Shown piece by piece: positions 7,766 through 45,584 of a stretch of 64,000 bases of DNA. The DNA is taken from positions 73,033-137,032 of the forward strand of contig CAYNRK010000003.1 of NCBI GenBank assembly GCA_964399675.1. Reading direction: 5' to 3'. Below the pieces are notes generated by a model. The model was not told where the DNA came from. It worked only from the letters and a program-made list of their open reading frames with translations, and did no database searches. The number at the start of each line of letters is the position of its first letter. Position 1 is the stretch's first letter. The position numbers were made by a program, and so were the translations under genes. Source of the DNA: an uncultured Gammaproteobacteria bacterium (lineage in GTDB: Bacteria > Patescibacteriota > Patescibacteriia > UBA9934 > GWF2-40-263).

Positions 7766-8317
7766 CTACCTCGCGATCGAAGTTCGCTCGAAGAAGATGC
7801 CGTTACAGAGAACGTGGCTGGGGCCGGCCGATCCCTCGTAGGAACCGACGTGTTCGATGGCCCGTCCGAAACGTTGGAAGTGCTCCATCATGGACTTCAG
7901 GAGCTCGGTCGCATCGTCACTGCGATCGATTTCGGATCCGCCTCGCACCTCGCTTTCACTGAGGTAGAGATCGATCTTGCCGTCGACGTCGACGTACCAC
8001 CGTACCGGATCACCGCCGGGTGAGGCCAGGGTCAGCACGAGGAACGGCTGCTTGAAGGGTCCCGGATTCTCTGGGTCGTAAGGCAAGTGCTTCAGGTCTT
8101 GCCTCTTGGACTTGAGACCAAGGGCGATCTGCAACCCCTCCCGAGACACCACGGTGGGGTCCACGGACAGGAGATCACTCAACAGGCCAGACTCGAGAAG
8201 TCTCTGCAACACATCTCCATCGAGCCCCTGCTCGGAGATCAGCTGAAGGACAGCATGTGCCTGTGCGAGCGTTGCGGGCTTCTCACGATCAGATCGGACT
8301 GCGCTTCCTTGTGGCAT
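7766..8317 (-). CDS. GC-rich foreign ORF A, hypothetical protein (183 aa)
   Basis: Roughly 60% GC in an AT-rich context. A strong SD (ctAAGGAGGaactgcgATG) precedes the start and the gene has its own terminator. The protein composition is protein-like on the minus strand. No family recognised. Confidence 0.6.
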   Translation of the reverse strand: MPQGSAVRSDREKPATLAQAHAVLQLISEQGLDGDVLQRLLESGLLSDLLSVDPTVVSREGLQIALGLKSKRQDLKHLPYDPENPGPFKQPFLVLTLASPGGDPVRWYVDVDGKIDLYLSESEVRGGSEIDRSDDATELLKSMMEHFQRFGRAIEHVGSYEGSAGPSHVLCNGIFFERTSIAR

Positions 8318-8639: not shown

Positions 8640-9278
8640 ATGAACAAAAAAGATAATTCAATCGTTTTATTTCATGAAAAACAGGTTCGTCGTTATTGGG
8701 ATAATGAAAAAGAGCTTTGGTATTTTTCAATTGTAGATGTAATTGAAATTCTTACTGACTCGACTATTCCAAGAAGATACTGGAGCGATCTTAAAGGTAA
8801 ATTAAAAAAAGAAGGAAGTGAAGTGTACGAAAAAATCGTACAGTTGAAAATGATTGCTCCAGATGGAAAAAAAAGAGACACGGATTGTTTTTCTACTGAA
8901 GATTTACTTCGTGTTATTCAATCAATTCCTTCACCAAAAGCTGAACCTTTTAAATTATGGCTTGCTAAAATTGGACACGAAAGAATTGAAGAAACTGAAG
9001 ACCCAGAACTTGCTTTTGAAAGAGCCATGCAAACGTATCTTAAAAAAGGACATTCTAAAGATTGGATTAATCAAAGGCTTAAAAGTATTGAAGTCAGAAA
9101 AGAATTAACTGATGAATGGAAAGAAAAAGGTATGAAAGAAGGTTTGGAATATGCAATTTTAACAGACGAAATTACAAAAGCTTGGGCTGATAAATCAGTA
9201 AAACAATACAAGACTTTCAAGAGTCTTAAAAAACAGAGTTTGAGAGACAACATGACCAATCTTGAATTGGTTTTATAA
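8640..9278 (+). pseudogene. RhuM/Bro-N-like (DinD-type) protein, C-terminally truncated
   Basis: 212 aa. The N-terminus (VRRYWDNEKELWYFSIVDVIEIL) looks Bro-N-like and the ORF ends at ...LRDNMTNLELVL directly before junction repeat J3. Family members I recall are about 100 aa longer. Confidence 0.5.
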
Positions 9279-9283
9279 AGGGG

Positions 9284-9344
9284 GCCAGGTACGTTAATCG
9301 TAGCGTTATCAAATCGAGCGTAGAGGCTTGATTTTTTGGTTGAG
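9284..9344 (+). repeat. junction repeat J3 (full copy) with terminator hairpin
   Basis: cgttaatcgtagcgttatcaaatcgagcgtagaggcttgattttttggttga, nearly identical in architecture to J1. Confidence 0.6.
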
Positions 9345-12875: not shown

Positions 12876-13361
12876 ATGGCCTCTGTTGCAAGGCTTGCAG
12901 GAAGAGATCCTCGCATTGCACAGGTCTTTGACGAGGCCTTTGCAAACTCACCAGCGCTAGCAGCGTTTCTGACAACGCGAGTGCGCAATATGGGCGGAAC
13001 CGTGCTTGTTGCGCGGCTCTTGGTCAAGCATCTGACCAGCCTATTTCGTGGCGTGTTTCCCCATGTGAACAAGCATGTTGTGGACCGCTTTGACATATGG
13101 CCTCATCAGAGGTCTTTCCCTGCAATGGTCGAGGAACTGCTCGGCGGGGAGACACTTCTGAGAAGGGCTGCCATACTCCACACAAGCATCAGGGGTCGTG
13201 TGGAGATTCCGCCAGGCGCTACCCGCGTGAGGGATTGCACCATCAGGCCAAGACGCGGCACGCACGAGTCCTTGTGCGAGCCCGTGGTCTACGCCTTCTA
13301 CTGCGCATGCGCAATGCTGCGCAATCTACGACTTCCGCAGCCGGTTGCTGCGGCAGCATAA
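12876..13361 (+). CDS. GC-rich foreign ORF B, hypothetical protein (161 aa)
   Basis: Roughly 60% GC with a perfect SD (AAGGAGGTGAttcatcATG) and its own terminator. No family recognised. Confidence 0.6.
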   Translation: MASVARLAGRDPRIAQVFDEAFANSPALAAFLTTRVRNMGGTVLVARLLVKHLTSLFRGVFPHVNKHVVDRFDIWPHQRSFPAMVEELLGGETLLRRAAILHTSIRGRVEIPPGATRVRDCTIRPRRGTHESLCEPVVYAFYCACAMLRNLRLPQPVAAAA

Positions 13362-26163: not shown

Positions 26164-26219
26164 CGCATTATTCATAGGTCTTATAGGACCAATAGGACCT
26201 ATGAATAATGCGTTTTTTA
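26163..26219. terminator. bidirectional terminator: 21 bp-arm perfect palindrome
   Basis: aacgcattattcataggtc...gacctatgaataatgcgtt followed by TTTTT, between convergent genes. Confidence 0.65.
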
Positions 26220-26278
26220 ATTGAAATACCGCCCTCGTCTCCGAAGAGACAAGGGCGGCAGTGAGGACGGTTGCGATC

Positions 26279-27694
26279 TCAGTCGCGGATGTCCTTGAAG
26301 ATGGGGGTGAAGTACACCACCACAACGTACGGGGTCAGGCGGCGACCGTCGGCTTTGAAGATCACCTCATCACCTTCGCACGGGTAGTAGCGATGTCCAC
26401 CGCGTTCGTGGATGAACGTGGTGCTTCCGACCTTGACCGCCATCTGGATCTCGTCGCGGCCGATCCGGCGATTGTGGAAGGTGTCGCGCACGACCGTTCC
26501 GACCAGGAAACCGTTGTCTTCGAGTCGGCTGCGGAGCGTGTGCTCCAGGTCTGCGTGATTGAGCTTCAGACGACGCCAGGCTCGGTACACAACCATGGTG
26601 TTGGCACCGCCCAGCTTTTCGAGCACGACCTCGCGGAAGAACTTGCGAGCTTCCGGCTTGTCCATGCTGGCGCACAGGCTCAGCAGGAACGTGGCCAGGT
26701 TGTAGTGAGTCCAGTGCGAGGCCTCTCCGATCGGATCGAGCCTGAGAGCGACTGCACGCTTGGCTTCGTGCGGCAGCTCTTCGAGCACTGTCATGGGAAC
26801 CTGGCGCAGGTTGGTGAGACCCAGCGCCGCCCCTGCGATGAGCAGACCGCTTTTGACCGGCAGACGCAGTCGAAGATTACTCGCTGCCCTGAGCACCTCG
26901 TTGGGGCTCTTCTCTGCACAGATCTCGATGGCCTCAACGAGCTGATCGTTGTCCAGCATCCACCAGGGCTTGAGATCCATGTACTCGAGCCGGTCGTCGT
27001 TGTGGGCAACACCCTGACCCTCGACCTGCTCGATGAAGGCGTTGATGACCAGGTGCGGATGGGTCGCCTTGTCTGGCGAGAGCTCCGCCATGATCCTCGA
27101 CTGTGGCACACCCAGCAAACGCAGGTTGTTCCAGATTCCGCTGTTGGCCATGGAGTCGCTGCCGAGCCGCAGGAACTCGTGCACGTCGTTGGCCATGCCG
27201 CGTTTGACCTCCACCACGCGCAGGCGGTCGATGATCATCTGTGCGATCTCGTTTCGGCCGATGCCGTTCAGGATGGCCGCGACCAACCAGGCGTGGTTGC
27301 GCGCACCACAGTTGGTGTAGATCCAGCTGACCAGCTCCAAGCGACGATCGTCCCTGATCATCGACACCAGCTCGTTGCTGATGATGAAGCAGTTCAGCAG
27401 CCTGTAGCTCAGAGACCGCGCCGGATCATCTGCCGGCGCCTGCGAGTACACCTCGATGGTCTGATCGAGGAAGTCGGTCACGTCCACCATCAGAAACTCG
27501 AACATTTCCGGGTTGCGCAGGATCCAGGTCATTCCCATGGACGTGGGAATCGACCCAGCTCCAGCGTCGTCGATCGTCAGGACCCAGTTCCAGATGTCCT
27601 CGTAGGACACTCCACCTTCCTTGATCCTGGCCTCCCATGCTTCTCGGGCCAGGGGGAGCGCCTCGTAGCTTCCAATCTCTCTTCTCTCCAACAT
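26279..27694 (-). CDS. GC-rich foreign ORF C, hypothetical protein (about 471 aa from Met45 of the long ORF)
   Basis: Roughly 60% GC. On the minus strand there is a textbook promoter TTGACA-17-TATTAT and an SD ccGGAGGAcagATG. The composition is protein-like, and the plus-strand 525-aa ORF is its antisense shadow. No family recognised. Confidence 0.55.
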   Translation of the reverse strand: MLERREIGSYEALPLAREAWEARIKEGGVSYEDIWNWVLTIDDAGAGSIPTSMGMTWILRNPEMFEFLMVDVTDFLDQTIEVYSQAPADDPARSLSYRLLNCFIISNELVSMIRDDRRLELVSWIYTNCGARNHAWLVAAILNGIGRNEIAQMIIDRLRVVEVKRGMANDVHEFLRLGSDSMANSGIWNNLRLLGVPQSRIMAELSPDKATHPHLVINAFIEQVEGQGVAHNDDRLEYMDLKPWWMLDNDQLVEAIEICAEKSPNEVLRAASNLRLRLPVKSGLLIAGAALGLTNLRQVPMTVLEELPHEAKRAVALRLDPIGEASHWTHYNLATFLLSLCASMDKPEARKFFREVVLEKLGGANTMVVYRAWRRLKLNHADLEHTLRSRLEDNGFLVGTVVRDTFHNRRIGRDEIQMAVKVGSTTFIHERGGHRYYPCEGDEVIFKADGRRLTPYVVVVYFTPIFKDIRD

Positions 27695-27797
27695 CTGTCC
27701 TCCGGTCGCATAAAGCGAGTGAGGGAGCCTGGAAAATCCGTCCAGTACGGTTTTGGTGCAACTTGCACCAATCTCGGAATCGCACCGAGAACGACTA

Positions 27798-27826
27798 ATA
27801 ATAGCACAAAAATGCGGTTTTGTCAA
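27798..27826 (-). promoter_or_regulatory. sigma70-type promoter of gene C (TTGACA-N17-TATTAT)
   Basis: Minus-strand reading ttgacaaaaccgcatttttgtgctattat, with a perfect -35 and a 17 nt spacer. Confidence 0.5.
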
Positions 27827-27827
27827 C

Positions 27828-27856
27828 CAAAATACTAACCCCTAGGGTTAGTATTT
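27828..27856 (-). terminator. intrinsic terminator of rplA (perfect palindrome)
   Basis: aaaatactaacccctagggttagtatttt followed by T-runs on both strands. Confidence 0.65.
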
Positions 27857-27875
27857 TTTGCTGTTTTCTTTGATT

Positions 27876-28553: not shown

Positions 28554-28635
28554 ATTTTTTTGTGGTCCAAATGGCCCCTGCCTCCCACGTGTTATTTATT
28601 TTTTAACCTCTCCTCCACCCCCGTCTTTTTTGATT

Positions 28636-30120: not shown

Positions 30121-30149
30121 ACTATACTATATGTAGTTATTTTTGGCAA
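30121..30149 (-). promoter_or_regulatory. sigma70-type promoter for secE-nusG-rplKA (TTGCCA-N17-TATAGT)
   Basis: Minus-strand reading ttgccaaaaataactacatatagtatagt. Confidence 0.45.
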
Positions 30150-30179
30150 GAGAAGTTTGAGAAAGATAAAACCGCCAGA

Positions 30180-30540
30180 GCTGGCATACAATCGCGCCCA
30201 TGAATAAACAGCGGGCACGACCACCAGATGGCAGTCAATAGAGGTAGAACGCCCGCCAGACAGCCGACGACCCCTGAAGCGCTGAAGAACTGCGCTCGCA
30301 CCGTGTGCTTAGGGGTCGCCGACTGCCGGCGGGCAGAAGGATGCCTCGAGAGACTTCGGGGCCTGATCCCCGGTGGTCATGTTGCACCTCCTTTCGGGGG
30401 GTGTTCTTCTCTCGAGGCGGACAGACGCAGGCCAGTCGTCCCTAGGAATAAGACCTTGCCGCTTGAACGCTCTACCTTACCTAGGACGGCGAGCGATGGT
30501 GGGAAGATATCTTAAATTGACGATTTTGTCAATAGTTAAA
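30180..30540 (-). other. GC-rich non-coding island E with promoter, structured leader and 23-codon sORF (30309-30380)
   Basis: About 60% GC and 360 bp, with no ORF of at least 60 aa on the minus strand. Minus-strand promoter TTGACA(30527-30532)-17-TATCTT. An 11 bp inverted repeat gcctcgagaga/tctctcgaggc brackets gaAAGGAGGtgcaacATG and the sORF MTTGDQAPKSLEASFCPPAVGDP. Confidence 0.4.
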
Positions 30541-30542
30541 CT

Positions 30543-30571
30543 AAAAAATTCGCCACTAAGTGGCGAATTTT
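30543..30571 (-). terminator. intrinsic terminator of gyrB
   Basis: aaaattcgccacttagtggcgaatttttt on the minus strand. A near-identical hairpin terminates tsf at 44607-44637. Confidence 0.65.
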
Positions 30572-36202: not shown

Positions 36203-37260
36203 TGTCAAAAGAAAAAAAAGATCAAATGATTTGGTGGTATGGAGCAACAGCAGCAGCTGTTGCTCTTGCATTTGTTTTTTCAGGCGCGCTACAGTCTTTT
36301 TCTATAGACCTATCAATTAATCAATCTGAGGAAATTCAATCAACACAAAATACACCTCTTTTTGAACACCCACTTAGTGGGCTTCCGATTTTTGACAAAG
36401 CTGAGCCTCCACATGTCTTTGGTGTTGTTATCGATAACCATGAGGATTCTTGGCCACAAAACGGTTTAAACAATGCGTTTTTGGTTATTGAGTCGCCTGT
36501 GGAGGCTGGGATTTCTCGTATGTTAGCGTTCTTTTCTGAAGATGCTGAAGTCGAAAAGATTGGTCCTGTGCGTTCAGCTCGTCCATACTTTCTTGATTGG
36601 AACAATGAGCTAGATGCTTTGTTTACTCATGTTGGCGGTTCAGATGCTGCTTTAGATTTGATTGCAAGTGGATCAACTTTTGATCTGAATCAATATTGGT
36701 ATGATTCCTATTTTTGGCGTTCAAATTCACGACTTGCTCCACACAATGTTTTCACTTCAACGGATTTATTAAACGAATACCTTGAGAAAAGAATAGAAAA
36801 CAAAACAGCACCAAAGCTTTTATATGGCTTGTGGTCATTTAAAAAACCTGAAGCAACTGAGGAATCCATTGGCCTTCATATTGATTTTTATCCACCTATT
36901 TATACTGTTGATTGGGAATTCGATCATGAGACAGGGAAGTATTTGCGAGATCAGTCTGGTCAACCGCATCTTCTTGAGAATGAAGAGCAGATCCAGGCTG
37001 ACAACATTGCGGTTGTAATTACAAGTGTTCAAATTATTGATTCAGTTGGACGTCGGAAGATAAAAACGATTGGAAAAGGGGATGGATATTTATTTCAAGA
37101 TGGTGGTGTAGTGGAAGTGATTTGGAAAAAGGAATCACAAGGTCAGCGCTTGCGATTCTATTCAAAAGAAAATGATAAGGAGCTTAAAATGAATCCTGGC
37201 CTCACTTGGGTTGAGGTTGTTCCAAGTAAAAATAGTATTGAAATTGTAAACAAGGATTAA
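36203..37260 (+). CDS. DUF3048-like (YerB-like) secreted protein
   Basis: The ATG at 36203 follows the rplY stop. The protein has a TM/signal segment and a PHVFGVVIDNHEDSWPQNGL block. The longer ORF starting at 36067 overlaps rplY and is rejected. Confidence 0.55.
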
Positions 37261-38165
37261 AGTTCTGCAACAACGATTCGGTCAAGACCTTGAAGGTCTT
37301 GTTTTATTTTTGGCTCTGTTTGAGGAAAGTTGTGTGCGATAAGGTTTGTGATTTTTTCTTTTTGAGTTGGATCAATTTCAAGAAGCACAGTCAGTCGCCT
37401 GGGTAATAATTTGCGATCTAAGCGCAATTGTTTGATTAGTCGAAAATAGGCGTCCAGGCCGTCTGAACCGGCCAGGAGAGCAGATTTTGGCTCATACGCA
37501 ACTTCTTTTTGTGCATACGCTACTTGTGTTTCTGTGAGATATGGAAGGTTGGCACAGAGAATCAGATGCTTAAAAGGATAGACAGATGAGACTTTTGGGT
37601 TTCCTGAAGTGTGTAGAGATCGAAAAAGATCGCTTACTGGTTGTAGTAGATCGCCTTGCCTAAAATCAATAAGTTCATGAGTGTCTAGTTGTTTGGCATT
37701 TTGTTTTGCAACAGCCAAGGCCTTTCCCTCTATGTCTGAAGCAACAACAGGAAATCCTGTTTCAATTGCTAGGGTTATTGCAATTGCACCAGAGCCTGTT
37801 CCAATATCTGCAAAAATAGTTGTGTCTTTGTTTGATTCTTTTGCAATCGCAAGTGCGTTATCAATAAGCGTTTCTGTTGCTGGTCTAGGAATTAAAACAA
37901 AAGGGTTAACCAGAAAAGATCGTTTATAAAATTCTTTTTTATTTGTTATATATGCAATTGGTTCTCGTTTAATACGTCGTTCAATTGATGTGATAAATTG
38001 TTCTTCTCGATGAGACTTAAGCTGTTCAGTAAACCGTGAAAAAAGTTTAGCCTTAGTAATATTCAAAATTGATGCAAGAAGTATTTCTGCATCAAGCATT
38101 GGTGAATCAATATCAGCCTTTCTTAGTTTGTTGTTTGCCCACTGTAAGGCTTCAAAGATAGTCAT
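37257..38165 (-). CDS. prmC: release factor glutamine N5-methyltransferase
   Basis: HemK/PrmC-like SAM methyltransferase (DIGTGSGAIAITLAIE) in a conserved partnership with prfA. Confidence 0.8.
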   Translation of the reverse strand: MTIFEALQWANNKLRKADIDSPMLDAEILLASILNITKAKLFSRFTEQLKSHREEQFITSIERRIKREPIAYITNKKEFYKRSFLVNPFVLIPRPATETLIDNALAIAKESNKDTTIFADIGTGSGAIAITLAIETGFPVVASDIEGKALAVAKQNAKQLDTHELIDFRQGDLLQPVSDLFRSLHTSGNPKVSSVYPFKHLILCANLPYLTETQVAYAQKEVAYEPKSALLAGSDGLDAYFRLIKQLRLDRKLLPRRLTVLLEIDPTQKEKITNLIAHNFPQTEPKIKQDLQGLDRIVVAEL

Positions 38166-38175
38166 TCATTTTTTT

Positions 38176-38308
38176 GTGTCATTGCGAGGAGGCCGTCAGG
38201 CCGACGAAGCCCTCGGCCGTGCCCGTCCTACGGGCGAGGCAATCCTCGTATTAATGAATACTATACTACGGAGATTGCTTCGGCCAGCTTCGCTGGCCTC
38301 GCAATGAC
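38176..38308. mobile_element. MITE-like palindromic repeat, family 2 (GTCATTGCGAGG … CCTCGCAATGAC termini)
   Basis: tgtcattgcgaggaggccgtcaggccgacgaagc...gaggcaatcctcgtat...cctcgcaatgac. Related copies are at 52347, 56178 and 57241. Confidence 0.7.
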
Positions 38309-40328
38309 GCGGGGATTTTTTTGCCAAAAAGAAAAGTAGGGCCCTCTTCGATTCGCACCGAAGGGGGCCCAGAAGGACGCCAGAGTAACAGTGGGTGACC
38401 GCCCGAAGGTGGCCACAGCTTCGCCAGTGTTAGCGTCCGAGTTGTTCCGACGCTGGAGCAAGGTGTCGCGTTCGAGCAAGGCTCGCACGGACACACAGGC
38501 TCCATGTCTCTTCTTGGCTGAGTGGTCGGTTCTTACACCTACCTCTCTTGATGATCGGTTGCTTCTTGTGGTCCGTGGGAGGACCTTGCAGGAACTTTCG
38601 CCGTGAAGCTAGGTTCCACATCCAATCTCCAACTGTCTCGAAGACCTTCTGTATCATCCCCGAAGGAATGACCTTACTTTTTCTCATGTCTGGCCCGAAG
38701 ACCAAGTTAGCTTTCCCCCGAAGAGTACTTGCATCATGATACTTTTTCAGTACAGCCGAAGCTGCATCAGAAGAGGAACGACAACGATTTTCGACCGTTA
38801 TTTATTATCCCTTTGTTTCCTTGGGGATCTTTCGTTGGTTACTCGCTGTGCAACCTTTACGAAAGTGGTCTATCCATTGCTGGATTTCGTTACCTTTTGG
38901 AAGCTCTTTTGGTCGAAACCTCTGGAACTCCCTCACCTTACTTTGGCCGAAGCCGTTTCTGGTTTTTTAGCTCCCCATGCCTGGGTTGCTCAGATCTTTC
39001 GACCTGTTGAGTAATCTGTGACTGATTGATGGATCAGCCATTACTCTTAACGATTTTCAACCGCTATTTATTATCCCGTTGTTTCCATTGGGATCTTTCG
39101 TGGTTATGTCGAGCAAGCTCTAGTAACCTTACGAAAGTTGGTTTATCCTTCGTTTGATTGCTCAAACGTTAGGATTCTCGTTACTTTTTTGGTTGCCCTT
39201 TGGTCTCCCTCTAGGCTTCCTCACCATTTCAGCCGAAGCTTACTTTGGATTTTTGGTCCACATTTGACTACCCGGAGGTCTTCAATTGCTTTCCAAGGTG
39301 TTTCCACCTTTGATCAACACTGGTGTTGGTTTTTAATCAACACCCATCCTGCTTTCCCACAGCTTGTTTCCTGCAAGTCTTTGCTTCCTGTGCCCAGGTA
39401 AGCTTGACTTACTTGTTTCTTGGCTGCTTTCTACAGAATGACTCTGCTTTGGGTGTGGCTTTTGTTTTCCCGCTCGTTTTCTCCGCGTTTCCTTGGAGAC
39501 TCGGTTGCTTGTTTTCCATTTCCGCACTTTGGCAGAGTTTTTGGATCGGTTTACCCGTTCCTTTTTGTTTGCATTAAGGCCTTCCCCGCTATTCCCACCG
39601 AAGTGGTTTTCATCACGGAATCGTTTCATCAGGATTGCTCCCGAATCACTGCCTTTCATGCAATGTATTCCTTGTAGTCCTTTGTTTCCCGTCCGGTTAC
39701 CCCTCTGTCTCCAGTGAGGTTCGTTACTTGTTTCCACTTAGAACTACTTGGTTTTTTGGACCGGTTTACCCGCTCCTCTTCGTTTCCTTCGGATTGTATT
39801 CCCGAGCTTATTTCCGCAACACACGTGCTGTGGCTTTGGGCTCTTGTATTCTCTCCGTGTACTTACGAAGACGTGCTGATCTGGTCTGACCAGGCTCCCA
39901 GGGCAGTTGATTACTCTGTCGGCCTTGTCGCACGTGATGTCCAGATTAAACTAAGAAGTATTTCCTGTCAAGCCCCCCGGAATGACTAGTTTTTGATAAA
40001 AGACGTTGGTTATCCACAGAGGTGAGGATGGGATTGGTGGATAAGCATGGATGTTACCGGGAAGGACTGTCCCGGTAACACCTAAATTTTTGGAAAAGAA
40101 AGCGGATCCAGTCTTGGATCCGAGAAGAAGGGTGTTGGTGAAGGCGACAAGGAAGAGGTGCCGCGGTGTTGCGGGCTCTTGTTTCACTGCCCCAGGCCAG
40201 CAGGGCAGTTGTCGTTCGGAGGTAGAAGTCGTGGGGCGGCACCTCTTCCCGTCGCACCTCACCGCGACCAGCACCATGGGTGGTGGTGGTCAGATACGCC
40301 TTGAAGATACCGTTTTTCCCCGTTTTTG
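38309..40328 (-). other. 2.0 kb ORF-less, strand-biased insertion between prfA and prmC (candidate large structured ncRNA or tandem sRNA array)
   Basis: No protein-like ORF is present on either strand. The operon (minus) strand is purine-rich, with many gaaa, cgaaag and cttcgg motifs. There are roughly 266 bp tandem units at 38785 and 39051 and repeated cggtttacccg motifs. Confidence 0.4.
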
Positions 40329-41459
40329 TCAACCCTGCTCAACCTCAAGAAGTTGTTTCACCTCTTCTTCTTTCAATGCATTGATTATGTTGTCGATTGC
40401 GCCATCCATAATTTCAGGGATGTCGTGGAAGTTTGTTTTTATTCTGTGGTCTGTTACGCGATCTTGCGAAAAGTTATATGTACGGATTTTTTCTGAACGA
40501 TCACCGGTTCCGATTTGAACGCGACGTTTATCTTCACGTTCTTTGCGTGCTTTCTCTTGCTCATGCGCAAAAACACGTGCTCGTATGATCGAAAGCGCAC
40601 GTTCTTTATTTTGTTTTTGCGATCGTTCTTCTTGGCAGTAAACCATCATGCCAGTTGGAATGTGTGTGATTCTAACTGCAGAGTAGGTTGTATTTACGCT
40701 TTGACCACCAGCTCCGGTTGAAGTCGTTGCTTCAATCTTCAGGTCCTTTGGGTCGATTTTAATGTCTACTTCCTCAGCCTCTGGCATGATTGCAATTGTT
40801 ACGGTTGATGTGTGAACACGTCCTTGTTTTTCTGTTTCAGGCACGCGCTGAACACGATGCACCCCGCTTTCGTATTTTAGTTTTGCGTAAACCCCGGTTC
40901 CTTTTATTGAAAAAATGACTTCTTTAAAACCACCAAGATCGTTCCGATTGGCTGAAATTAGCTCTGTTTTGAAGTTATTGCGTTCGGCAAAGCGTGTGTA
41001 AAGCCGCATCATTTCAGCTGCAAACAAAGACGACTCATCACCGCCCGCTCCAGCGCGAATTTCAACAATGATTCCTTTTTTGTCCATTGGGTCTTGTGGA
41101 AGCAGGGCAACAAGTAGATTTTTTTCTAGTTCTGGAAGTTTGGTCTCAAGTTCTACAATTTCTTCTTTGGCAAGTGCTTTCAGGTCTGCGTCATCATCTT
41201 GGGCTAAGGCAAGCTTTGCGTTTTCAAGATTTTTTTTAGCTTGTTCATAAGCTGCGCCCACATCAACAATTTCTTTTATGTGCGCGTATGCTTCATTTAC
41301 TTTTCGGATTTTTTGCGGATCAGAAAGCACCTCGCTGTCTGTGAGTTTTGTTTCAAGACTTTTCAGTTCTTGTTTTTTATTTTGAACTTGTTCGAGTAGA
41401 TTCATATTTTTTTGGAAATTAAAAACGTCCTTCAACAGAAAGACGTTTTTGTTCAACAT
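40329..41459 (-). CDS. prfA: peptide chain release factor 1
   Basis: GGQ motif (GAGGQSVNTTYSAVRITHIPTG) and a PxT-type RF1 region. Confidence 0.92.
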   Translation of the reverse strand: MLNKNVFLLKDVFNFQKNMNLLEQVQNKKQELKSLETKLTDSEVLSDPQKIRKVNEAYAHIKEIVDVGAAYEQAKKNLENAKLALAQDDDADLKALAKEEIVELETKLPELEKNLLVALLPQDPMDKKGIIVEIRAGAGGDESSLFAAEMMRLYTRFAERNNFKTELISANRNDLGGFKEVIFSIKGTGVYAKLKYESGVHRVQRVPETEKQGRVHTSTVTIAIMPEAEEVDIKIDPKDLKIEATTSTGAGGQSVNTTYSAVRITHIPTGMMVYCQEERSQKQNKERALSIIRARVFAHEQEKARKEREDKRRVQIGTGDRSEKIRTYNFSQDRVTDHRIKTNFHDIPEIMDGAIDNIINALKEEEVKQLLEVEQG

Positions 41460-44503: not shown

Positions 44504-44523
44504 GTTTTTTTCAAAATCATAAC

Positions 44524-44604
44524 CACCCCTAACCCCTCCTTGAAAAGGAGGGGAATTATGCAAATCGAAAGTCCCCCTTTTCAAGGGGGACTACAGGGGG
44601 TTAG
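44524..44604. mobile_element. palindromic element family 3 (one to two tandem copies) downstream of tsf
   Basis: cccctaacccctccttgaaaaggagggg ... gtcccccttttcaagggggactacagggggttag. Confidence 0.55.
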
Positions 44605-44606
44605 CA

Positions 44607-44637
44607 GAAAAATCCGCCATTAAGTGGCGGATTTTTT
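44607..44637 (+). terminator. intrinsic terminator of tsf
   Basis: aaaaatccgccattaagtggcggattttttt. Confidence 0.7.
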
Positions 44638-44671
44638 TAGTCTGCCCGCAGCTGAGCTGCGGGCAGACTAA

Positions 44672-44801: not shown

Positions 44802-45584
44802 ATGGGACAGTTCGCTGTCAGCGATGGACAGAGACTCAAGGTCTTTGATCAATGTGTGGATCTGCAACGCCGCCTGAGAGAAGGTGGTCTGGATCCCGAA
44901 CTGATGAGCGTGGGTCTTCAGGCGCTTCTTACCGGGGTTGATCCAGAAGAGCTTGCAGCTGCTCGTGGCAAGCGCGAACAGCCTGCCAAGCGCAATCTCG
45001 CCGCGGAACGCCGTAACGAGATCACGGCGTTCTACCGCGGTCTCGGGTTTGACACGCTCGAGATCCCTGTGCCCACCATGGGCGGTAAGCGCGTTTCCAA
45101 CAATGAGTTCGGCCGTCGAGCCAAGGCTGGTCAGGCGCTCTTCTTTCGTCCGGCTACCTCACTCATTTCCTACAACAGGTTCATGACTGCTGTGGGTCAG
45201 ATGGATCATTGGACAGTACTCGATGAGGCCGAGTGCGAGAACATCGCCTGGGAGCCAACAGAGACTGGCTACTGGTTCTGGGCTGAGATCCAGGATTCCT
45301 GCCTCCGCGTGGGTACATCCTGGAACGATTTGACGGCCGAGCACAACCTCCTCTGCCTGGAGGAGTACATGATCGTCTGGCACGTCATGCGCGTGCTCGA
45401 GAGCATCATGATCGATTGTGAGACTTGGTCATGGCTACGCACTCGCTACCAGGCCGTTCCTGGCCCCAGTGCTCTCTACGCCCTCATGCATTACGATGAG
45501 GTGCATGTTGGCTGGAACAGGTCTAGGGGTCTCTCGCTTGGCCACCGCGAAACGGGTGGTCGTATCGCGGAAAAGCTCGTCTGA
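44802..45584 (+). CDS. GC-rich foreign ORF D, hypothetical protein (260 aa)
   Basis: Roughly 58% GC with an SD aAAGGAtagtcATG. The composition is protein-like (W/Y/H/E-rich C-terminal half). No family recognised. Confidence 0.55.
   Translation: MGQFAVSDGQRLKVFDQCVDLQRRLREGGLDPELMSVGLQALLTGVDPEELAAARGKREQPAKRNLAAERRNEITAFYRGLGFDTLEIPVPTMGGKRVSNNEFGRRAKAGQALFFRPATSLISYNRFMTAVGQMDHWTVLDEAECENIAWEPTETGYWFWAEIQDSCLRVGTSWNDLTAEHNLLCLEEYMIVWHVMRVLESIMIDCETWSWLRTRYQAVPGPSALYALMHYDEVHVGWNRSRGLSLGHRETGGRIAEKLV

Follow-up and report, generated by a model that had tools for sequence, protein, structure and literature searches.

Translational riboswitches and other leaders that sequester the Shine-Dalgarno (SD) sequence are recognized by a covarying structure in the 5' untranslated region, in which a 3' helix pairs an anti-SD strand with the SD itself. 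The leader described here precedes a gene for a 471-amino-acid (aa) protein, located downstream of rplA in the 64-kb stretch of contig CAYNRK010000003.1 presented above (hereafter, "the window" means this whole stretch), and it is alike in both respects; it also resembles small aptamers in its conserved unpaired nucleotides and its possible pseudoknot. Judged from sequence, this architecture of conserved loops plus an SD helix is compatible with a riboswitch. On the other hand, the leader differs from the described riboswitch expression platforms, since it has no Rfam match, is tied to a single protein family, and offers no alternative (ON) fold that could be identified. The autoregulatory leaders of ribosomal proteins (r-proteins), such as that of the L1-controlled L11 operon, constitute a second close system: here too a structured leader lies over the ribosome-binding site, the gene sits next to rplK-rplA in five genomes, and the encoded protein ends in a predicted OB-like barrel, of the kind that binds RNA. 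The difference is that our leader is also found before family members located at a distance from ribosomal genes. Broadly, the locus would represent a new protein family together with a new leader RNA motif that makes use of the familiar SD-sequestering principle, and we regard it as probable, with considerable room for doubt, that it forms a self-contained single-gene expression cassette of a conserved, uncharacterised family, in which the leader would gate translation through the SD helix.

The leader occupies positions 27695..27792 of the minus strand, about 97 nt if transcription starts some 7 nt past the -10 element, in good agreement with the roughly 95 nt given by an earlier reading of the letters alone (hereafter, the first-pass annotation), which missed the conserved structured RNA contained in it. 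Two 5' hairpins (at about 27790-27772 and 27771-27753), which recur at the same place in the homologous leaders that were read or folded, would stabilise the transcript after its predicted start, and they are followed by a conserved motif of about 63 nt (27692..27754, minus strand) delimited by RNAalifold, covariance models and pair counts. The SD sequence GGAGGA (27698..27703, minus strand), also noted in the first reading, lies 3 nt upstream of the ATG. Thirteen leader loci were compared, namely the window and 12 homologs (labelled L004-L009 and L090-L095), and their upstream regions can be aligned even though the homologous proteins are only 24-47% identical; the GGAG of the SD is invariant in all 13. 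The order of elements begins with CCG(U), followed by a covarying hairpin with a loop starting with CGG, a short spacer and a near-invariant CUCACU; the 3' part consists of a variable hairpin closed by UCGG/CCGA, the sequence AUCGGAG, 5-8 nt and the AUG. On the minus strand of the window, RNAalifold places the P1 stem at CUGGA 27745-27741 and UCCAG 27733-27729, the anti-SD helix at CCUC 27724-27721 and the GAGG of the SD (27702-27699), and the inner helix at UCGC 27718-27715 and GCGA 27709-27706. Pair counts further point to a possible pseudoknot of three pairs between CCG (27750-27748) and the loop CGG (27740-27738), which is 82% paired across the loci; the three sequences that miss one of the two elements miss the other as well, and we take this interaction as suggestive only.

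The paired state of these elements is reflected in the changes accumulated by the homologs. The P1 stem is found as CUGGA/UCCAG, CCGGA/UCCGG, UUCGGG/CCCGAA, CCAGG/CCUGG, UCUGGG/CCCAGA and GCCGAA/UUCGGC, and the outermost pair of the SD helix also covaries (CG 5, UA 3, GU 2, AU 1, UG 1). RNAalifold, applied to an unfitted MAFFT alignment, returned the first hairpin and a bipartite helix pairing nCUC with the GAGn of the SD. In the model-fitted alignment 89.7% of the cells are paired and 9 of the 12 pairs show changes on both sides; the observed covariation was reached in 0 of 500 shuffles, and pairing falls to 32-58% when the partners are slid by 1-3 columns. The minimum-free-energy folds of single sequences recover the SD helix in the window (where the fold of the leader has z = -2.6) and in most homologs. 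A covariance model of the motif (R1) scores 45 bits at the window site and, over 400 kb, matches only 14 sites, all upstream of family members, with E-values between 1e-6 and 1e-18; the positive control is its sole match in 847 kb of rplA loci from other bacteria. A leave-one-out model built without the window (R2) finds one site in the 64 kb, at 27754-27692, with 29.5 bits and E = 1e-4. On the other hand, none of the 4227 families of Rfam 15 matches the window at its gathering score (the leader itself giving only chance-level matches with E > 1), and four homologous loci compared with Rfam gave no match either. On this comparative evidence, the leader is a structured, putatively cis-regulatory RNA in 13 of 13 loci.

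A short SD-sequestering helix with an internal loop directly upstream of the ATG is also the typical layout of an RNA thermometer, and the leader might act as such, or as another purely physical switch. The known thermometer classes are recognized by their anti-SD strands: in ROSE elements it is U(U/C)GCU with a bulged G, and in fourU elements UUUU. The anti-SD of this leader is an invariant CUC within CUCACU and corresponds to neither of the two motifs. Furthermore, several unpaired nucleotides (AC, AUC, the CGG loop and the upstream CCG) are conserved, together with the extra hairpin, among genomes that differ widely in GC content, which would be unusual in a thermometer. A purely physical switch is for these reasons quite improbable, and an RNA recognized by a ligand or by a protein is favoured over it because of this same conservation; the unpaired nucleotides would then offer a recognition surface rather than a simple melting element.

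Upstream of the leader, the promoter claimed in the first-pass annotation (TTGACA-17-TATTAT) was recovered by a promoter scan at 27798..27826 of the minus strand, with a -35 hexamer TTGACA (27826-27821), a 17-nt spacer, a TG motif (27806-27805) two bases upstream of the -10, and a -10 hexamer TATTAT (27803-27798). It matches 11 of 12 positions and is of the sigma-70 type, with an activity that is predicted from sequence; a promoter-like match by itself is at chance level in the 2.3-kb region (1 found, 1.5 expected). A more specific signal is given by a palindrome reaching into the spacer, formed by ACAAAA (27823-27818) and TTTTGT (27811-27806), which belongs to a family pattern, TTGACAAA-N5-10-TTTTNTDNTAT, in which an A-tract and a T-tract form a palindrome between the two hexamers. 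The pattern occurs once in the window, with 0 occurrences expected, and in approximately 1.1 Mb of fetched loci it is found upstream of family members in eight genomes. The sole exception is a near-identical promoter copy (TTGACAAAAAGCCCATTTTGTGGTATTTTG) at L004 5021-5046, before an adjacent GC-rich gene for a 210-aa protein, which hints at a shared operator or regulon. Because the palindrome is conserved and has been duplicated before a neighbouring gene in L004, we propose that it may serve as the operator of a transcription factor, which would add a second, transcriptional layer of control.

The gene itself lies within the longest GC-rich segment of the window (26183-27829, 1647 nt), which has 59% GC compared with about 40% in the genome; GC remains at 0.58-0.62 across approximately 26200-27800, against a background of about 0.40. 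The first-pass annotation had placed its largest GC-rich module at 26225-27860, close to these limits. The coding sequence of the 471-aa protein runs along the minus strand at 26279..27694 (ATG at 27694-27692, last codon ending at 26282, stop codon TGA at 26281-26279). A longer open reading frame (ORF) of 515 aa on the same strand (26279..27826) starts with a TTG that coincides with the first three bases of the -35 hexamer, that is, inside the promoter, as was pointed out in the earlier reading. The choice of Met45 as the start made there is borne out by the public gene calls, which contain the identical 471-aa protein with this start, by the N-termini of the homologs, which align to Met45, and by the conserved leader, SD and ATG, which align on the Met45 ATG in 13 loci.

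Long ORFs are present on both strands of the block, since a plus-strand ORF of 525 aa extends over 26261..27838, and in AT-rich genomes a GC-rich island is often a structured RNA; the local folding of the region is also more stable than that of codon shuffles. A structured non-coding RNA, or a real gene on the plus strand, could in principle account for these features. Nonetheless, the three-base periodicity of GC fits the minus frame only (0.62/0.39/0.81 by codon position, mirrored as 0.77/0.41/0.61 in the plus frame), with a GC at third codon positions (GC3) that stands well above the 0.22-0.33 of the flanking rplA, rplK, nusG, dCMP-deaminase-like gene and gene for a 1006-aa protein. The minus-frame protein has homologs with E-values down to 6e-71 and an AlphaFold model with a mean predicted local distance difference test (pLDDT) score of 94, whereas the plus ORF has no Pfam or other family match and the region none in Rfam. 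The codon-position GC, the homologs and the model together establish that the minus strand is the coding one; the minus-strand ORF is the real gene and the plus-strand ORF its non-coding mirror shadow, as had been proposed from the beginning, and the alternatives in which the block encodes an RNA or a plus-strand protein are effectively refuted. At least 12 contigs carry the identical 471-aa protein amid the same neighbours; they belong to an ENA assembly (264-kb scaffold) and to two JGI metagenomes, the source sites being JGI 3300009375 and 3300009107 and ENA ERZ23499040, and misassembly, which had also been raised as a concern, is excluded since the same gene and context recur in these independent assemblies.

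Both ends of the block coincide with terminators. The gene has an intrinsic terminator of its own at 26227..26260 of the minus strand, with a 15-bp stem containing 9 GC pairs, a UUCG loop and then TTTCAATT; the hairpin and tail are those of an intrinsic terminator, with TTTCAATTAA as a weak T run. The hairpin of the rplA intrinsic terminator (27829..27857, minus strand), formed by a perfect 13-bp inverted repeat with a T run after it, directly adjoins the -35 of the cassette, and at the other border of the GC-rich block lies the terminator hairpin of the convergent dCMP-deaminase-like gene (26165..26211, plus strand).

The first-pass annotation found no known family for the protein. In the sense of described families this still holds, as the query has no Pfam, NCBIfam, PADLOC or PDB-sequence match at reporting thresholds and a single, non-significant match in PHROG (E = 0.25); scanning of 50-90 family members against Pfam, NCBIfam, PHROG, PADLOC and PDB yielded scattered single matches only (E > 1e-3), among them a weak match of one member to IF-1A. 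The protein is, on the other hand, not devoid of relatives: an exhaustive HMMER search of 1.84 billion cluster representatives retrieved 107 proteins at E <= 1e-3, 21 of them at E <= 1e-30; their lengths are 400-520 aa, and none exceeds 40% identity with the query. These matches indicate a conserved, uncharacterised protein family of at least 107 clusters without a described family match. The identifiable hosts of the family are candidate-phyla-radiation bacteria (Patescibacteria, Uhrbacteria-like). A word-indexed homology search, run with the single sequence and with a profile, returned the protein itself only; no relative was present in the GTDB species representatives scanned, nor in any of 80 rplA loci taken from such representatives (0/80), and a pattern scan of metagenomes added one homologous locus. 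Searches of phage, plasmid and IMG/VR data gave no match for the protein, the profile or the leader core, and no description of the 471-aa family, of the leader motif or of GC-rich cassettes in Uhrbacteria was found in the literature.

The structure proposed for checking in the first reading was modelled with AlphaFold2 from an alignment of 90 homologs, with a mean pLDDT of 94.0 and a predicted template modelling (pTM) score of 0.90; modelling from the single sequence gave a pLDDT of 46 and was unusable. The model contains approximately 25 helices in two helical regions (residues ~1-185 and ~241-393), joined by a variable linker of lower confidence (~186-240), and ends in a C-terminal beta-barrel (~394-465) with six predicted strands at 396-460 (pLDDT > 90). 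Foldseek found no fold match for the model at E <= 1e-3 in PDB or in the viral database BFVD, and the helical body of about 390 residues has no fold match. For the last ~70-80 residues, the best fold matches are the OB folds of uS12, IF1 and Rpb7, with probabilities of 0.85-0.97 and non-significant E-values of 0.3-0.5 (root-mean-square deviations of 4.4-5.7 Å over 74-91 columns). The predicted C-terminal domain resembles an OB-like barrel, and is similar to the OB-fold domains of uS12, IF1 and the S1/Rpb7 type in being predicted as a small beta-barrel; it differs from them in the non-significant E-values, in the unmatched helical body, and in the family motif Q-x2-V ... HRYxPxxGDxV, which has no Pfam counterpart. 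Conserved positions of the family are mostly G, W, F, P, L or V, the few polar ones being S52, R118, C259, K262, R277, Q417, R435, Y436 and D442, and no catalytic constellation was found in a survey of its conserved residues. Since hardly any polar or catalytic residue is conserved, this protein, which is cytoplasmic, seems more likely to bind a partner or act as a scaffold than to be an enzyme.

With regard to its genomic context, the gene is preceded by secE-nusG-rplK-rplA and followed by a dCMP deaminase/deoxyribosyltransferase gene, two small ORFs, the gene for the 1006-aa protein, DHFR, thyA, dut and tmk. The best match of RplA, with 71% identity, is the protein of Candidatus Uhrbacteria GW2011_GWE2_46_68, the next best ones being from other Patescibacteria, and the host is on these grounds a bacterium of the candidate phyla radiation. 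In this named genome (L010), no member of the 471-aa family is present at the rplA locus; a different ORF of 195 aa lies directly after rplA (8743-9330), with a GC3 of 0.67 compared with ~0.42 in its host, and GC-rich cargo may favour the position downstream of rplA. The neighbourhood of the window gene (nusG-rplK-rplA-[tmk/dcd]-X-dCMP deaminase-DHFR) recurs in L004, L008, L090 (GCA_016208545.1) and L093 (GCA_964355525.1). Among the window, L004, L008 and L090 (L093 being left out of this comparison), RplA is 71-84% identical and the family protein 30-47%, and the closest pair is L008 and L090 for both proteins. A neighbour-joining tree of the family is star-like, with non-syntenic members nested among the syntenic ones.

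These data bear on whether the gene was recently acquired from a GC-rich donor and settled after the rplA terminator with an ordinary promoter, no special regulation and a leader similarity that is inherited baggage. Horizontally acquired islets do resemble this locus in their sharp GC3 jump, their own promoter and terminator, their variable presence and their cargo of unknown function. The step in GC3 from 0.27 in the neighbours to 0.81, which falls sharply at the terminators, is what such an event would leave, and so are the other unrelated GC-rich single-gene modules of the window, the small GC-rich islands shared with a few other unknown genes in L004, L005 and L095, the absence of the gene from the locus of the closest named genome, and a family tree not cleanly congruent with synteny. 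On the other hand, acquired genes are usually AT-richer than their host, whereas this cassette is GC-richer; its position is kept in five genomes, and the family protein is much more divergent there than RplA. At such depth neutral non-coding DNA would be saturated, yet the promoter and the leader have been kept, with compensatory changes. Furthermore, no direct or inverted repeats were found bracketing the block, no tRNA lies in the window and no mobility gene is adjacent, so that the repeats, the integrase or transposase, and the tRNA target of a mobile element or integrated island are all missing, and the phage, plasmid and IMG/VR searches mentioned above were negative. Recent acquisition is on balance unlikely, if still credible, and the term "inserted" used in the first-pass annotation is too strong, given the conserved neighbourhood in four other genomes and the lack of flanking repeats. 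The other statements of that annotation that could be tested all held, save the notion of a protein without relatives.

The high GC3 is a property of the family and not of the window copy alone. In 12 of 12 genomes the gene has a higher GC3 than the median of the genes around it, with differences of +0.04 to +0.54 (Wilcoxon p = 2.4e-4); examples of gene and neighbour values are 0.81/0.27 (window), 0.90/0.52, 0.61/0.33 and 0.43/0.39. This consistency is a further difference from acquired islets. The excess could have either of two sources: a GC-rich gene pool of Patescibacteria from which the gene at a favoured site is repeatedly replaced by horizontal transfer, or a family-specific force on synonymous sites, for instance biased gene conversion or selection for an mRNA that is stable and structured. 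The folding of the coding sequences was compared in sliding windows with synonymous-codon shuffles for seven family members and ten control genes. The z-scores of the members were -2.7, -3.2, -5.0, -4.1, -0.9, -1.5 and -0.9, and those of the controls averaged about -0.2 (Mann-Whitney p = 0.003), which is weak evidence of excess local structure in the coding mRNA of the family, since one control gene reaches -2.8.

Another explanation is that the protein is a defence or toxin-like effector, silenced by the leader because it is harmful, with divergence, island composition and patchy presence as signs of an arms race. In L095/L096 (525-9617 of a 778-kb scaffold), the homolog P0037 lies among genes for a TIR-domain protein, a ThsB-like TIR protein and RadC, together with three unknown GC-richer genes, and in L092 the homolog follows a TraG/VirD4-like ATPase; the fast divergence relative to the neighbours and the tight dual control elements would also suit a harmful product. 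Nonetheless, a defence-island-like context was found in 1 of the 13 genomes examined (that of L095/L096), the neighbourhood is a housekeeping one in five genomes, and neither PADLOC nor PHROG gave a match among the 90 members scanned. There is likewise no conserved partner gene and no conserved catalytic residue, and all copies of the protein in the population, on at least 12 contigs, are identical. We consider such an effector rather improbable.

Our preferred interpretation, a self-contained cassette whose leader gates translation, would work as follows. The default fold of the leader would block binding of the 30S subunit, so that mRNA would be made and poorly translated until a signal opens the SD helix; this signal could be a small ligand, a physical cue or a protein, possibly the OB-domain product of the gene itself. 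Autoregulation by this predicted OB-like domain is an attractive possibility, in line with the r-protein leaders discussed above. Control by L1 was also considered, as the gene follows rplA. The sequence GUGGGAGGCAGGGGCC, located shortly before the rplA start in the 216-nt spacer between rplK and rplA (28560-28600, minus strand), may resemble the L1-stalk sequence of 23S rRNA used for L1 autoregulation, and a GGGAGGC element upstream of rplA could be the L1 site. L1-mediated control of the cassette through rplA was rejected, since the leader is unlike this GGGAGGC-containing region and also occurs away from ribosomal genes.

Several points weigh against the preferred interpretation. The covariation comes from 13 sequences and the pair counts from a model-fitted alignment (the unfitted one gives the same pairs), and three of the four anti-SD pairs are invariant, and so uninformative. 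The transcription start was inferred, as was any repression or switching by the SD helix; autoregulation and ligand sensing are guesses, and the OB-like assignment of the modelled domain depends on Foldseek E-values that are non-significant. Besides, the excess of mRNA structure is absent in three of the seven members, and the control gene with z = -2.8 is that of ThrRS.

The window contains other features of interest. Three further GC-rich single-gene modules lie between housekeeping genes, at 7766-8317 (minus strand), 12876-13361 (plus) and 44802-45584 (plus), coding for proteins of 183, 161 and 260 aa with GC3 of 0.71, 0.59 and 0.66, respectively; all three are equipped with a promoter of the TTGACA type, a hairpin terminator and a strong SD, and none of them has a Pfam domain, the family promoter pattern or the leader motif. 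Neither these modules nor the GC-rich neighbours of the homologs turned out to be relatives, being unrelated to one another and to the 471-aa protein, and none of them carries a Pfam domain. Between tsf and the promoter of the 260-aa module (44520-44670) there are consecutive GC-rich hairpins, including CCCCTCCTTGAAAAGGAGGGG, CCCCCTTTTCAAGGGGG, CCGCCATTAAGTGGCGG and a CTGCCCGCAGC/GCTGCGGGCAG palindrome. The interval of about 2.1 kb between prmC (37257-38165, minus strand) and prfA (40329-41459, minus strand), at 38166-40328, contains no ORF longer than 134 aa and has a GC of 46-49% against the 40% background, with an AT skew of -0.34 to -0.39; no Rfam match was found in it even at E <= 0.5, and, in a genome that is compact elsewhere, it may represent either a decayed gene or a large non-coding RNA. 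Finally, positions 30126-30544, between secE and gyrB, have 54% GC and no ORF with a coding-type GC periodicity; with no Rfam match at E <= 0.5, this segment could correspond to a leader or to a structured RNA.

Much of bacterial diversity belongs to Patescibacteria, whose genes are for the most part unannotated and whose regulation is barely known. In this sense, a "hypothetical protein" becomes here a family of at least 107 clusters, with a high-confidence model that lacks a fold match in PDB and BFVD, accompanied by a family-specific promoter element and by a candidate cis-regulatory RNA absent from Rfam, for which a covariance model can be used on metagenomes. The GC3 excess of one family across hosts with GC3 of 0.27-0.79 is unusual, and can serve to separate repeated transfer from selection on synonymous sites. 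A bolder version, to which we give little credence, is that of a new Patescibacteria-specific class of riboswitch or autoregulatory RNA gating an unseen helical fold, in which a GC-rich, over-structured mRNA would be stored silent until a signal arrives. If true, the signal might be, for instance, host-cell contact or a nucleotide-related metabolite, and the cassette would be post-transcriptionally "armed" in these ultra-small episymbionts. Beyond this, the leader RNA offers experiments a tractable handle on gene control in such hard-to-culture organisms.

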